From IMG/VR virus record IMGVR_UViG_2609459824_000008: a stretch of DNA of 4,564 bases; one strand, given 5' to 3'. Source of the DNA: a virus (lineage: Duplodnaviria > Heunggongvirae > Uroviricota > Caudoviricetes). Positions within the stretch are counted from its first letter, which is position 1; each line of letters begins with the position of its first letter. The notes below the pieces were generated by a model, which searched no databases, was not told where the DNA came from, and saw only the letters and a list, made by a program, of their open reading frames with translations. The translations under genes and the position numbers were made by a program. Positions 1 through 4,564 of the stretch are shown here, piece by piece.

Positions 1-222
1 TTTACCCCGATGGTCTTCAACGAGATGCCACGATGCCTCATCACTGTTGAAAACAGCCACAAAGCCAGCAGGAATATCTGGTGGTGCAATATCGGTACTG
101 TTTGCTGGCAGACCTGTATGAGGCGGAATATATGCGTCACCTTCACCAATAAATTCATTAGTTCCGGCCAGCAGATTATAAATTTTTATGGTCCGTGCTT
201 GTTCACTCATTCTGAATGCCAT
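1..222 (-). CDS. tfa: Tail fibre assembly protein Tfa, N-terminal 74 codons; the 3' end of the gene lies beyond the window start
   Basis: Minus-strand ATG at 222-220. Hand translation of the reverse complement of 1-222 gives [74 protein letters not shown], open to the window edge. This matches the lambda Tfa N-terminus as I remember it almost residue for residue. The start overlaps the stf stop as TAATG. It is absent from the supplied ORF track because it has no in-window stop. Confidence 0.9.
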
Positions 223-3200
223 TATGCAAGCCTCACAATATAGTTAAATGCGATGTTTTTGACGGTGTTTTCCGCGTTACCCGCAGCGTTAACGGTGATG
301 GTGTGTCCATGTGAACCAATCGCAACGGAGTGCGTATGCGCACCAATACCTACAGTATGTGCATGTGCGCCAGAACTTGCTGCAGTACCAGACAGCGAGT
401 GGGTATGAGCACCTGCTGACTGTGTCTGAATACGTTGATAATACGATCTATAGGAAGAAGTCTCCGGGCTTACTTGATACTGTGAATTCTGGACATAAGT
501 GAACCCACCGCCATCATAAAATGCTAACGCAGAACCGCCGCCTCCTGGCCAACGAATACCATTACCATGAGTATGAACACCGGCAGACCCCGTAGAGCCA
601 CTCAGACTGTGCGTATGCGCCCCGGTGTTATTCGTGGATTTAGTGCCGTAATCAAACGACGATGTGGTTTTCGTCCCCAAATCCGTACTGGATGCGCTGG
701 CGCTGTGGGTGTGCGATTTAATGCCGTCCTGTTCCTGAGACAATACGGCCCGGCCACTGGCGGGGTTGCCCTTGATTGTCCAGCCGCGCATATCTGGAAT
801 AACACCTGAAGGATAGGCAATAGCCAGTTTCGGATATGCTGCCTTATCAAACGTCTGCCCCTGCATGATTGCATAACCTGCAGGTGGTGTATCTGATGGC
901 CACGGCAGCGGAACACCTGGCGGAAACGCTTCAATATTTGCCGAGCCGTCAAATTTTACGCCGTTAATTGTCCTTGCAGTTTGCAATTTGGTTGCTGTGC
1001 TTGCATTACCCGATAAAGATCCAGTGATACCACCACTCGCGTTTAATTTAGTTGCAATTGTAACATTGCCAGTATGGTTACTAATTATAAACGGCCTTAA
1101 GCTATTGTGCGTACCAAGACTGTTACCCGAATCTGTCAACATAAAATATGTGTTTGATCCATCATTTCGGATAAAGAATCCATAGTTGCCATAGGCAATA
1201 CGCAGACCATTTGCTGACCTTGAAATAACCTCACCAGCAGCAGTTAAACCACCTGAAAGAGTCCCTCCAGTTAATGCCAATGCCCCAATATTTGAAGGGG
1301 TCAATGTGATATTTGCACTACCATCAAATGACACACCGTTAATCGTTCTGGCTGCCTGAAGTTTCGTGGCGGTCGCAGCATTACCTGTAGTGTTTTGATT
1401 ACCGGTAGCGTTGACTCCAGGCAAGTTGATATCTGCCGATCCATCAAATGCCACGCCCCCAATCTTACGTGCTGTCTTGATCTTGGTCGCAGTATCTGCG
1501 TTTCCGGTCAAATTACCAGTAACACTACCACCAACTTTTAGTCCATTACCGATGGACACCAACCCTGATCTTAAGTTTATAGAGAATGGTCTTAATGAAC
1601 CGATGTCTCCATTTTCCCCCTCCCCTTCATTAGTCGGAATAAGATGAAGATGATCTTCGGAACGCCTAAAAATAAGGCCAAAGGCTTGGTTGAATATTCG
1701 AAGAGCATTTATCGTGCTGATTTTTAACTGCCCTCCCATTGTGTCGCCAGTTTTTTGAACTGAACTATCTTTAACAGTTTTAACTGCCTTTGGCGTTGCC
1801 GCCAGCTTTTCACTGGTGCTGTTTGTTGCACTGCTGAGCTGTACTATCCCCTTTTTCGTCGTGCTCGCATCCTCCAGCGCCACGGCGGATGCAATATCCT
1901 CTGCCCGTTTTGCTGCTGTCTCGGCGCGCGTTGCCGCGGATTCAGCAGCAACTTTGCTCTGAGATGCAGCCGTCGCACTGCCTGCCGCCTCTGATGCTTT
2001 CGTTGTTGCTGTCGTGGCACTACCTTTCGCTGCTGACGCTTGTCTGGTCGCCTCATCTTTTGAAGCAGACGCAGATGATGCCGATGACGCCGCTGAACTG
2101 GCTGACGATGCGGCTGCCGCCTTAGAGGAAGCAGCATTGTCTGCTGAAGTCTTTGCATTTGTTTCAGAGGTTTTTGCTGCAGAAGCAGACCTCGCTGCTG
2201 CAGTGGCTTGCTCAGTGGCTTTGCCAGCCTTCGTTGTGGCTGTTGAAGCGGATGATGCGGCGCTTTCTGCCGATTTTCCGGCGGCGGTGGCACTGGCTGA
2301 GGCCTGCCCGGCACTTGTTGACGCGGCACTGGCAGATAATGCAGCCGCTGTTTTTGAACCTGCCGCAGCTGAGGCGCTCTGTCCCGCTGCTGTTTCAGAA
2401 GACTTAGCGTTCGTCTCGGACGTTTTTGCCGCCTTCGCGGAATTTCCTGCCGCCGTTGCCGAGGAAGCTGCGCTGCTGGCGCTCGAGGCTGCGCTCGTTT
2501 CTGATGATTTTGCCGCCTCTTTTGAAGCTGACGCATCCCGGGCTGAGGTGGCAGCTTCTGACGCTTTCGTGGTCGCGGTGGATGCAGAAGTGGCTGCTGA
2601 TTGTTGTGACGCTGCCGCATTCGTTTCTGACGTTTTCGCCGCAGCGGCACTGGTGGCCGCCGCGCTTTTTGAGGACTCTGCAGCGGCAGCACTTTTTTCC
2701 GCTTCAGTGGCCTTTGTTGATGCCGTTCCTGCGCTGGAAGACGCTGACTGAGCCGACGACGCGGCCTGTCCGGCTGACGTGCTGGCTGCGCGTGCTGAGC
2801 CTGCAGCATCAGTCGCATGGGTTGCCGCCTCACGGGCTGATGTGCCGGCATCGCTGGCTGACTTCTTCGCGGCTGCCGTGTTCTGTGCCACCGCGGACGC
2901 GTTACGCGCCACCTCTTCCACCATCAGTTCAAAACGGCGCAGAGCCTCAGGACGGGCATCATCCTCTGTCATGGCACCGAGAAAATCATTCAGCGTACCG
3001 GGTTGAGAATCTTCATACACGGTAATGGTCCCGGCATGTGATGGCGGGAATCCCTCCACCAACAGACTGACGCTGTACTGACCATACTCGACGTCCATTG
3101 TGTAACGCCCGGCTTCATCCGGGTTTTCTGAGGCCACTGTGTTCACCACCACCGTGGTGCTGTTGCGCCTGGCCTTTAGCTGAATGGTGCAGTTTTGTAT

Positions 3201-3248
3201 CGGCTTACCTGCGCCATCTTTCAGTACACCTGAAATCCGTACTGCCAT
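222..3248 (-). CDS. stf: Side tail fibre protein Stf, intact 1008 aa: lambda-like N-terminal domain, Ala/Ser/Thr-rich shaft, tail-fibre repeat modules, His-x-His C-terminal tip
   Basis: Single uninterrupted ORF in the track. N-terminus [36 protein letters not shown] and C-terminus ...[40 protein letters not shown] match lambda Stf and E. coli prophage StfR-type fibres from memory. Minus-strand ATG at 3248-3246 is preceded by a G-rich Shine-Dalgarno-like run (GGGGGG, plus coordinates 3252-3257). Stop TAA at 224-222. Gene order lom-stf-tfa is as in lambda. Confidence 0.95.
303..713 (-). other. C-terminal tip region of Stf carrying seven His-x-His motifs (predicted metal-binding trimeric needle, as in T4 gp37 and lambda Stf)
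   Basis: HxH pairs at residues 846/848, 878/880, 892/894, 948/950, 962/964, 971/973 and 980/982 (SHTHS, GAHTHS, VHTHG, GAHTHS, AHAHT, AHTHS, SHGHT). On the plus strand these appear as recurring gtg/atg-rich blocks, for example gtgcgtatgcgc at 330-341 and 609-620. Confidence 0.7.
927..1010 (-). repeat. Tail-fibre repeat unit 3 within stf ([28 protein letters not shown], residues 747-774)
   Basis: Same 28-aa motif. DNA 946-1010 (gccgtcaaattttacgccgttaattgtccttgcagtttgcaatttggttgctgtgcttgcattacc) aligns by eye with 1321-1385. Confidence 0.8.
1302..1385 (-). repeat. Tail-fibre repeat unit 2 within stf ([28 protein letters not shown], residues 622-649)
   Basis: Same 28-aa motif. The DNA copy begins exactly 120 nt from unit 1 (1321 vs 1441, both starting ccatcaaatg). 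Confidence 0.8.
1422..1505 (-). repeat. Tail-fibre repeat unit 1 within stf ([28 protein letters not shown], residues 582-609)
   Basis: 28-aa motif G-N-A-x-T-A-T-K-[IL]-x-x-A-R-x-I-x-G-V-x-F-D-G-S-A-x-I present three times in Stf. The plus-strand DNA 1441-1505 (ccatcaaatgccacgcccccaatcttacgtgctgtc...) is visibly similar to 1321-1385. Confidence 0.8.
1869..2891 (-). repeat. Low-complexity Ala/Ser/Thr/Lys-rich shaft-coding region of stf (about residues 120-460) with recurring AAKTSETNA-like motifs
   Basis: The translated Stf is dominated by A, S, T, K, E over about 340 residues. KTSETNA occurs three times (residues ~205-211, ~275-281, ~359-365). The GCN/TCN/ACN codon periodicity explains the long shadow ORFs in other frames and on the plus strand (2014..2751 +, 1844..2851 -). 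Confidence 0.8.
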
Positions 3249-3257
3249 ATTCCCCCC

Positions 3258-3285
3258 ACAAAAAAGCCCGCCTGAACCGGCGGGC
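3258..3285 (-). terminator. Rho-independent terminator between lom and stf (minus strand)
   Basis: Minus-strand sequence GCCCGCC-GGTTCA-GGCGGGC followed by TTTTTTGT. The 7-bp GC-rich stem is at plus 3266-3272 / 3279-3285 with a 6-nt loop; the U-tract corresponds to plus 3258-3265. It lies downstream of the lom stop (3313-3315) and ends about 10 nt before the stf start codon. Confidence 0.65.
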
Positions 3286-3312
3286 TGTCATAACACTGTG
3301 TTACCTGGCTAA

Positions 3313-3912
3313 TCAGAATTTATAACCGACACCAACGATGAAACTGTTGGTACGCCAGTCACCGCTGCCGGAGCCTTCATAAGCAATATCAATGGCCACG
3401 GATTCGGTCGGGTTAAACTGCACGCCAGCTCCCCACGCCAGAGACGTGTTGCTGTGGCGACCGTCATCACTTCCGGTCAGCACGTCGTGCGTTTTCCCCT
3501 TGTTGTCAGTTACGCGGAGATAATCCCCGGAGAAAGTCGACACACGGCTGTAAGCCACACCCGCCATCGCATACGCGCTGAACCATTCATTCACGCGCAC
3601 AGACGGCCCCGCCATCACGCTGAACCAGCGGTTACGAACGGAATCTTCATGCCAGCGGGTATCGCTGTAACGGGTAAGCTGGCGATTCTTGTCTCCTGCA
3701 TAGCTGAATGACGTCACCATCCCCAGTGTGTCCGTAAACTCATAACGGTATTTCACGTTAATCCCGTTCAGATCATCGCTGCCGGGAACGTTCGTCGAGG
3801 CATGAAGATACCCCGCGCTCAGCGTGGACTGATGTTCAGATGCCCATGCAGGCGCACCGGATACGGCCAGACAAATGGCTGCGGACAAAATTGCTGCACA
3901 AACTTTACGCAT
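3313..3912 (-). CDS. lom: Lom outer-membrane beta-barrel protein (Ail/Lom family), 199 aa with N-terminal signal peptide
   Basis: Complete [42 protein letters not shown]...FIVGVGYKF, which matches lambda Lom from memory. It has a signal-peptide-like N-terminus with an AWA-SE cleavage context and a C-terminal aromatic residue (YKF) typical of outer-membrane barrels. Shine-Dalgarno GAGAGG (plus 3918-3923) sits 5 nt upstream of the ATG at 3912-3910; stop TGA at 3315-3313. Confidence 0.93.
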
Positions 3913-3933: not shown

Positions 3934-3960
3934 AATAAAAAAGGCGTCATTCCTGACGCC
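3934..3960 (-). terminator. Rho-independent terminator between J and lom (minus strand), possibly weakly bidirectional
   Basis: Minus-strand sequence GGCGTCA-GGAA-TGACGCC followed by TTTTTTATTG. The stem is at plus 3943-3949 / 3954-3960 with loop 3950-3953; the U-tract is plus 3934-3942. It lies 23 nt downstream of the J stop. On the plus strand the stem is followed by ctttattgg, which is T-rich enough that weak opposite-strand activity is possible. Confidence 0.6.
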
Positions 3961-3982: not shown

Positions 3983-4564
3983 TCAACGAATACTGATGCC
4001 GGAAGCGGCTTTTTTGGTCACAATCACCGTACAGTCGGTGATATTGCCTGCCCCCTGATTGCCTTTCTGGAAAATCTTAAACTCCAGAGTGACGCTTCCC
4101 CTGCCACTCGGCATATCAATAACCGCACTGTAGCTACCGGGAATGGCCCCTTTAGTTTCTCTGGATGCGATTAATACGCCGTTTTTGCGAACTTCAAAAC
4201 CATAACCCGTGTATCTTGTACCTCCCGGGTTATTACCACTTCCCGGATCGCTATACGCTATTCCGTTAAAGATAATGGGCGGAATAATAATTTGACGGTC
4301 AAAGTTATGATCATCGCTGATGGTGACTGTAACCGTCCCGTTTGGTGTTTCCGTATTACCCCACGTACCAGCCTGTTTCGGGAATGATTTGGATACAGCT
4401 TTAACGAAGTCACCTCTGACCTGAGTCGCCTCCAGCATGCCCTTAATCGTACAGTTTTCATTTACCGTGACATTGTTGAGCGTCCCGGCGTTCGCATTCA
4501 CACTGCCACTGATATCCGCATTTTTAGCGGTCAGCTTTCCGTCCGGTGTCAGGGAAAATGCCGG
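3983..4564 (-). CDS. J: Tail tip / host specificity protein J, C-terminal 193 codons; the 5' end of the gene lies beyond the window end
   Basis: The reading frame is open from the window edge (4564) to the TGA stop at 3985-3983. Hand translation upstream of the track ORF gives ...PAFSLTPDGKLTAKNADISGS-VNANAGTLNNVTVNENCTIKG..., matching the lambda gpJ C-terminal region (GKLTAKNADISGSVNANAGTL) from memory. The track's M at 4501 is an internal GTG (Val), not the true start. Confidence 0.9.
   Translation of the reverse strand, partial: PAFSLTPDGKLTAKNADISGSVNANAGTLNNVTVNENCTIKGMLEATQVRGDFVKAVSKSFPKQAGTWGNTETPNGTVTVTISDDHNFDRQIIIPPIIFNGIAYSDPGSGNNPGGTRYTGYGFEVRKNGVLIASRETKGAIPGSYSAVIDMPSGRGSVTLEFKIFQKGNQGAGNITDCTVIVTKKAASGISIR

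Follow-up and report, generated by a model that had tools for sequence, protein, structure and literature searches.

A T4 gp37-type tip as the candidate receptor-binding segment of a lambda-type side tail fibre

The locus studied here raises the question of whether a segment that interrupts the regular array of HxH motifs near the end of a tail fibre protein is the part which decides on the host range of the phage. A preliminary description had proposed this for positions 408-566 of the analyzed DNA, a stretch of 4,564 nucleotides (in the following called the window). All genes of the window are located on the minus strand in the order of the lambda late operon, J, lom, stf and tfa, as inferred from open reading frames, a Pfam match of Lom and the annotations of matching phages and genomes (Table 1). 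The ATG of tfa overlaps the stop codon of stf (TAATG). Within Stf, Pfam disclosed the N-terminal attachment domain of prophage tail fibres (PF08400, residues 1-134, E=2.4e-71), the phage fibre repeat PF03335, a gp34-like trimerisation domain (PF21446, residues 620-722) and the Collar domain (PF07484, residues 778-825), which precedes the needle and gave E=3.7e-10 and 40 bits at a cutoff of 24. By its PF08400 N-terminus and the order J-lom-stf-tfa, the protein can be classified as a lambda-type side tail fibre (Stf). The window is similar to many lambdoid phages and E. coli prophages, each time as a mosaic, and its best match among complete genomes reached a coverage of 90% at 97% identity.

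Positions 408-566 correspond exactly to Stf residues 895-947 on the minus strand. The tip of Stf contains seven HxH motifs, whose first residues are 846, 878, 892, 948, 962, 971 and 980, and the segment indeed lies between the third and the fourth of them, as had been described. This array is not a chance pattern, since the region matches the crystal structure of the receptor-binding tip of T4 gp37 (2XGF). The last 237 residues of Stf gave E=4.6e-81 (phmmer, query 23-259 versus chain 26-242), with near-complete identity in the collar, the two stem strands and the C-terminus. The insert, which stands opposite T4 residues 932-965, is the sole stretch that HMMER could not align to 2XGF. According to the summary of 2XGF by Islam et al. 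2019 (PMC6957217), the collar domain D10 of T4 gp37 comprises residues 811-881 and 1010-1026, and the stem of this protein spans 882-931 and 960-1009. The stem harbors seven histidine-bound iron ions, and residues 932-959 constitute the distal pole of the fibre (PMC6957217). Purified T4 needle binds OmpC and LPS, and by alanine scanning the metal-binding histidines as well as almost the whole tip surface were found to be required for infection via LPS or OmpC (PMC6957217). The previously assumed T4-type layout, in which the receptor head is inserted between HxH repeats, was corroborated by the fact that the segment is homologous in position to T4 gp37 932-965. On the grounds of homology, the HxH array, the collar, the variable insert and the adjacent chaperone gene, the C-terminus of Stf can be assigned to the T4 gp37-type receptor-binding tips with the 2XGF fold.

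An AlphaFold2 single-chain model of residues 771-1008 (79-sequence alignment) reached a pLDDT of 48 and a pTM of 0.19, values too low for the model to be of use for what is presumably an interdigitated metal-bound trimer. When the insert and its HxH flanks were compared to PDB sequences, no chain was obtained at E<=10, S16 gp38 included. A pattern composed of I-x-x-W-x-G-x-G and SYR, which the insert shares with the T4 tip, was discarded as a chance similarity (Smith-Waterman versus shuffles, z=-0.03).

The composition of the segment had been regarded as unlike that of the remaining tip owing to Gly runs, Tyr, Ser and Gln. This holds true for Tyr, which amounts to 11% in the segment and 2% in the rest of the needle (p=0.015), and for Gln (11% versus 0%, p=0.001); in addition, His is absent from the segment (p=0.005 versus the rest of the needle). 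It does not apply to Gly (19% versus 12% in the needle, p=0.24, not significant) and Ser (13% versus 15%, not significant), which do not set the segment apart because the needle itself is rich in Gly, Ser and Thr. If the T4 domain borders are applied, the segment ends with six residues, TQSAGA (942-947), that are part of the returning stem. On the DNA level, the allele-specific block extends from approximately window position 410 to approximately 594, corresponding to residues 886-946, and includes HxH3 together with the preceding TGSAG.

Table 1. Positions of genes, fibre domains and motifs in the window
Feature	Window position	Strand	Basis
tfa, tail fibre assembly chaperone, first 74 codons	1..222	minus	DNA identity to annotated tfa of ev099 and lambda
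stf, intact side tail fibre gene, 1008 aa, stop codon included	222..3248	minus	ORF and Pfam
Collar domain, C-terminal part, residues 992-1008, corresponding to T4 1010-1026	225..275	minus	2XGF alignment, PMC6957217 borders
Returning stem strand, residues 942-991	276..425	minus	2XGF alignment; identity 0.97 among homologues
HxH7, HxH6, HxH5 and HxH4, in returning stem strand	303..311; 330..338; 357..365; 399..407	minus	
Flagged segment, residues 895-947	408..566	minus	HxH positions, coordinates checked
Tip subdomain proper, residues 895-941, allele-specific insert, candidate receptor-binding, corresponding by position to T4 gp37 932-959	426..566	minus	Unaligned block versus T4 932-959, identity 0.30, 40 distinct inserts
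Micro-variable patch, residues 920-933	450..491	minus	71 same-allele sequences; variants also in protein clusters
Outgoing stem strand, residues 845-894	567..716	minus	2XGF alignment, HxH positions
HxH3, HxH2 and HxH1, in outgoing stem strand	567..575; 609..617; 705..713	minus	
Residue 891 (V/D/A), three-state polymorphism directly before HxH3	576..578	minus	Same-allele sequences
Collar domain, N-terminal part, residues 774-844, corresponding to T4 gp37 D10 811-881	717..929	minus	2XGF alignment, borders from PMC6957217
lom, Ail/Lom outer-membrane protein; context as in lambda gene order	3313..3912	minus	PF06316, E=1.9e-121
Gene J, 3' end, tail tip host-specificity protein, cut by window edge	3983..4564	minus	Annotation of matching phages/genomes

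Homologues were compared using a set that consisted of the query and the best 120 of 2,542 homologues. In all 121 sequences the HxH motifs are spaced by 32, 14, X, 14, 9 and 9, where only X, the distance between HxH3 and HxH4, is variable (35-56). All 14 HxH histidines are invariant in the 79-sequence alignment. The mean identity to the query was 0.82 in the collar, 0.91 in the region of HxH1-3 and 0.97 from HxH4 to the end, but merely 0.30 in the insert (residues 895-947). Thus, the homologues diverge above all in the segment, just as the preliminary description had anticipated. Its further expectation that this part would be the likeliest to differ between related prophages agrees with 40 distinct inserts of 32-53 residues that occur in the query and the best 120 of 2,542 homologues; the segment as a whole is not invariant. 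By pairwise alignment versus shuffled controls, the inserts form roughly ten families. No significant similarity was revealed between the insert of the query and those of T4, lambda and the other insert families (z<=2.1), and for this reason contact residues known from T4 or lambda cannot be transferred to it.

The mosaic is also visible in the DNA of individual phages. ev099 is approximately 100% identical to window positions 1-360, random at about 421-600 and again 87-100% identical at 601-750. Lambda shows near 100% identity from position 1 and about 73-80% from position 301, followed by the same random (about 421-600) and conserved (87-100%, 601-750) stretches. Phage 204576 is 97-100% identical over 1-750 with the insert and divergent beyond, while the P2-like phage P24A7b matches (97-100%) over the collar block at about 750-960 and is different elsewhere. 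Judged by these alignments, the tip is a cassette that circulates among sipho- and myoviruses and has conserved HxH-coding DNA at both borders. A site-specific boundary of the cassette at window position 594/595 was also considered. Three IMG/VR contigs join unrelated genes, encoding an stf shaft, an S49 protease and a Nu1-like protein (small terminase), to the same nucleotide just upstream of HxH3. As all three junctions were absent from the 5,426 complete E. coli genomes, this boundary was rejected; the junctions are probably draft-assembly chimeras at the edge of the allele-specific DNA.

The conserved 3' flank was detected at 6,592 places in 3,860 of the 5,426 complete E. coli genomes. The insert of the query was found at 809 places in 723 of these genomes (approximately 13%), among them an O104:H4 strain. 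Only two deposited phage records contain it, neither of which is annotated or linked to receptor data. Among 1.84 billion representative proteins, no diverged relatives of the insert were identified, the only copies being at least 92% identical; two other matches (P0129 and P0130) turned out to be summed weak matches to repeat proteins. In terms of sequence, the query insert is a common yet uncharacterised tip variant that stands without diverged relatives.

Variation within this insert family was analyzed in 69 IMG/VR loci, six chromosomal copies of E. coli and phage 204576. After removal of truncated and rearranged copies, 71 sequences representing 36 haplotypes were left, covering residues 811-1008. 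The minimum numbers of nonsynonymous and synonymous changes in these related sequences were 10:1 in the insert, 11:18 in the stem and 7:17 in the collar. By Fisher's test, in which the 71 sequences are not independent, the insert differed from the stem (p=0.004) and from stem and collar combined (18:35, p=0.0007). The pN/pS values of the collar (0.03) and the stem (0.15) indicate strong purifying selection. The ten changes of the insert are confined to six codons, each of which was hit two to three times (P=0.002 if uniform over 53 codons). Four common polymorphisms, all of them amino-acid-changing, were found at residues 920 (Q/K/H), 921 (N/D), 929 (E/G) and 933 (Y/R/S), and a rare one at 927 (S/R, 3 of 71 sequences). 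Residue 891, which precedes HxH3, behaves as the insert polymorphisms do. Haplotypes occurring in nature include V-QN-E-Y, D-QD-G-R and A-KD-G-S. On the other hand, residues 895-919, the half containing the Trp and the Gly run, and residues 934-947 were essentially invariant in the 71 sequences, together 39 of 53 residues. This pattern would fit a fixed scaffold with a small contact patch under diversifying pressure, whose changes mostly affect charge. The possibility of a target of a diversity-generating retroelement was dismissed because substitutions in the variable codons are not confined to adenine but affect T, C and G as well (GTT/GAT/GCT, TAT/CGT/AGT, CAG/CAT/AAG); neither a reverse-transcriptase ORF nor a repeat of the segment was found within the window.

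We propose, with a probability of roughly 85%, that positions 408-566 encode the distal tip subdomain of a trimeric lambda-type Stf, whose last ~235 residues constitute a T4 gp37-type receptor-binding module. The homology, the position of the insert, the variability of the cassette and the substitution pattern were all observed. The trimer and metal geometry that we infer is the following: each chain would leave the collar and run outward in a thin stem that is stabilised by seven metal ions, every one of them coordinated by the HxH motifs of three chains, form the tip at the far end and return through HxH4-7 to the collar. As to receptor contact, the 47-53 residues between HxH3 and HxH4 would form the cell-contacting surface and determine the receptor used in the first, reversible adsorption step, whereupon J would make the irreversible contact. 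The conserved HxH-coding flanks may act as homology arms, by which whole tip cassettes would be swapped among lambdoid, P2-like and T4-like phages. Selection would presumably have diversified residues 920, 921, 929, 933 and 891, more rarely 927, most likely tracking receptor polymorphism among E. coli strains, and the invariant Trp/Gly-rich first half of the insert would serve as scaffold. Precedents suggest a polymorphic outer-membrane porin or the LPS core as receptor; the aromatic-rich composition and the mostly charge-switching polymorphisms would fit either.

Other explanations of the same data have to be weighed. The insert might be a tolerant turn or spacer at the end of the needle hairpin, weakly constrained and carried along by recombination, with receptor choice residing elsewhere, in J or in other parts of Stf. 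The ratio of 10:1 is formally no different from the neutral expectation of about 3:1 (not significant alone, p about 0.2 by a binomial estimate), the insert families are mutually unalignable, as expected of unconstrained sequence, and lambda forms plaques even without its side fibres (PMC12617516). Nevertheless, we regard this explanation as quite improbable. It is the clustering of the changes and the multiple hits per codon that exclude relaxed constraint, for which the 10:1 ratio alone would be insufficient, and the large invariant portion of the insert is likewise unlike relaxed constraint. Moreover, the equivalent T4 segment is intolerant of single alanine changes or insertions (PMC6957217), and the insert has been preserved as an intact, in-frame sequence at hundreds of chromosomal places. 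That stf belongs to a cryptic prophage and is in decay, so that its polymorphism reflects loss of function and not adaptation, would be suggested by many homologues that are truncated or fused ORFs, combining terminase, Lom, ClpP or ParB domains with the tip, by a locus in which an IS3-family transposase-like ORF (recognized by eye) interrupts the insert and by another one in which a frameshift fuses stf to tfa. We find this scarcely credible for a window whose stf is intact with 1008 aa and embedded in the order J-lom-stf-tfa, the more so as collar and stem are under strong purifying selection. Over residues 811-1008, the reading frame is uninterrupted and unshifted in all 71 same-allele sequences of the final set, from which stop-bearing ones had been removed at the outset.

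A third explanation assigns specificity to Tfa, which, in the manner of gp38 of T2/S16-type phages, would stay attached to the end of the fibre, act there as an adhesin and use the insert as a docking platform. Assembly proteins are retained on the fibres of some phages (Mu/P2-type Tfa, S16 gp38), which counts in its favour, tfa follows directly after stf with overlapping stop and start codons, and the Gly runs of the insert bear a superficial resemblance to the Gly-rich motifs known from gp38 adhesins. The data on Tfa leave this model with very little probability. Per 30-nt window, the 5' end of tfa is 93-100% identical to the annotated tfa of ev099 and lambda; Pfam gave no match when the 74-aa fragment of the window was searched alone. 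Full-length Tfa of same-allele loci comprises 190-194 aa and closely resembles the Tfa proteins of lambda and ev099, most residues being identical by eye. Since nearly the same Tfa serves the unrelated inserts of lambda and ev099, it is without allele specificity and seems to recognise the conserved stem. That Tfa does not co-vary with the tip argues against a mechanism of the gp38-adhesin type. An adhesin of T2/S16-type gp38 was also rejected on the grounds that the Gly runs are inside the fibre protein itself, that the downstream gene encodes a lambda Tfa-type chaperone and that the insert matches no solved structure at E<=10, including S16 gp38. Finally, the fibre is of the T4 type, where gp37 itself binds the receptor.

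The distal tip reading can be compared with known systems. T4 gp37 and the query have in common the collar, seven HxH motifs of the same order and spacing, a near-identical stretch of the C-terminal 60 residues, a variable HxH3-HxH4 segment and a dedicated downstream chaperone gene. They differ in the length of the tip (28 residues in T4, 47 here) and of the HxH3-HxH4 interval (34 versus 53), and their tips have no significant similarity. Furthermore, T4 gp37, whose receptors are OmpC and LPS glucose, belongs to the long fibre of a myovirus, whereas the query is the side fibre of a siphovirus with a PF08400 N-terminus. The principle of a specificity segment between conserved flanks reportedly dates back to studies by the Henning and Krisch laboratories, which dealt with His boxes and with recombination between conserved motifs. 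With Stf (orf-401/orf-314) and Tfa of Ur-lambda, the query shares the order J-lom-stf-tfa, the N-terminal attachment domain, collar, stem and HxH scaffold, and the near-identical first 74 codons of tfa. The inserts are unrelated, however (lambda TSGLRMNSSGWSQYGTATITGSL..., z=-0.3), and the shaft of the query Stf is longer and Ala/Ser-rich, so that 1008 aa compare with 774 aa in lambda Stf. Lambda Stf binds OmpC. Ur-lambda Stf has been modelled as a gp37-like protein docking into OmpC (PMC12617516).

For the T4/lambda/PhiNP family, Magaziner & Salmond (2022) described a receptor-specific domain of about 30-70 aa between conserved domains of the distal tip, with conserved flanks (812-931 and 966-1026) around the specificity domain 932-965 (PMC9659904). 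As in this family, conserved flanks surround the putative receptor-specific domain of the query, and a gene for an assembly protein adjoins the fibre gene; unlike its characterised members, which use OmpC, OmpF and LamB, the insert family of the query is not represented there (PMC9659904). Gifsy-1 Stf of Salmonella, a lambda-like side tail fibre which mediates primary adsorption, binds Gal II of the LPS core (PMC12312913), so that the receptors of Stf proteins can be LPS core sugars besides porins. In papers on engineered lambda STF chimeras, no receptor data for the allele of the query were found.

Our data support the host-range reading of the segment given in the preliminary description, a principle that has already been published (PMC9659904). 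New is an uncharacterised tip variant, which is a new member of an established tip design. The gp37/Stf tip is among the best-understood modular host-range determinants and is used for retargeting lambda-derived delivery particles and therapeutic phages. To this, the query variant adds a short list of residues apparently under diversifying pressure, which helps in the choice of swap boundaries and mutagenesis targets; the general understanding of such fibres is unchanged. It is possible, if rather doubtful at present, that the orphan cassette recognises a receptor other than the OmpC/LPS-glucose pair of T4 and lambda, with residues 891, 920, 921, 929 and 933 (rarely 927) as a natural specificity code that tracks receptor alleles among E. 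coli lineages. If true, lambda-based delivery vectors, in which this scaffold is already in use, would gain a small host-range switch amenable to engineering.

The side tail fibre gene stf is composed of segments that follow different phage lineages. Its collar-coding block exhibited 97-100% identity to the tail fibre gene of Peduovirus P24A7b, a P2-like myovirus, while the adjoining tip and the chaperone gene tfa follow another lineage, that of phage 204576. It follows that stf is a three-way mosaic, whose breakpoints are situated near window positions 750 and 960.

Upstream of the collar, a motif of approximately 28 amino acids, GNxxTATK(L/I)xxAR(T/K)IxGVxFDGSxxI, occurs in three copies interspersed with globular segments, and the region harboring these copies overlaps the match to PF21446, a gp34-like trimerisation domain. 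The fibre also contains a long shaft region of low complexity, rich in Ala, Ser and Thr, owing to which long spurious open reading frames, such as 2014-2751 (245 aa), arise in alternative frames as well as on the plus strand. Among prophages possessing the same allele, the length of Stf ranged from 944 to 1137 aa, and the shaft is a candidate site of these differences. Two GC-rich hairpins followed by T runs agree with terminators annotated at the same places in mEp460 and Ayreon.

Features of the stf region and their coordinates
Feature	Window	Stf residues	Strand	Remark
Ala/Ser/Thr-rich shaft	~1800-2900	~115-480		
~28-aa motif region, three copies	~930-1500	~585-772		
Collar-coding block	~750-960	~763-833		match to P24A7b
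Junction in L036, L049 and L056	594/595 (equivalent)			locus position ~1474/1475
GC-rich hairpin with T run	3265-3286		(-)	following lom, shortly before the stf start
GC-rich hairpin with T run	3943-3960			between J and lom

In three IMG/VR contigs (L036, L049 and L056) the left partners are unrelated to one another, being the stf shaft in one, an S49 head protease gene in another and, in the third, an open reading frame resembling the small terminase Nu1 by eye. All three are joined at exactly one common nucleotide directly preceding TACGGGGTCTGCCGG (TGSAG-DHTH). A scan of 5,426 complete E. coli genomes disclosed none of these junctions, which are probably chimeras of draft assemblies.

Altered copies of stf occur at some loci that carry the insert family of this fibre tip. 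At locus L079 (locus position ~1400-1580) the insert copy is truncated at about residue 921, and a putative transposase gene, likened by eye to the IS3 family, lies directly upstream of it. At locus L054 a frameshift near the stf stop codon merges stf and tfa to a single open reading frame of more than 800 aa, which could be due to a sequencing error or could represent a genuine fusion, the latter eased by the overlapping TAATG. The insert family is also carried by a prophage of E. coli O104:H4 FWSEC0009 from Germany (NZ_CP031902.1, locus L006), there with the haplotype D891/H920/D921.

In many homologous open reading frames that contain the tip (e.g., P0068, P0012, P0014, P0019, P0078 and P0083), the tip is preceded by N-terminal Pfam domains of unrelated phage proteins, namely terminase GpA, Lom, tail protein L, ParB, Nu1 and ClpP. 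P0068 was present in 480 contigs, complete chromosomes among them. These genes look like deletion derivatives located in cryptic prophages, which have kept the tip together with tfa.
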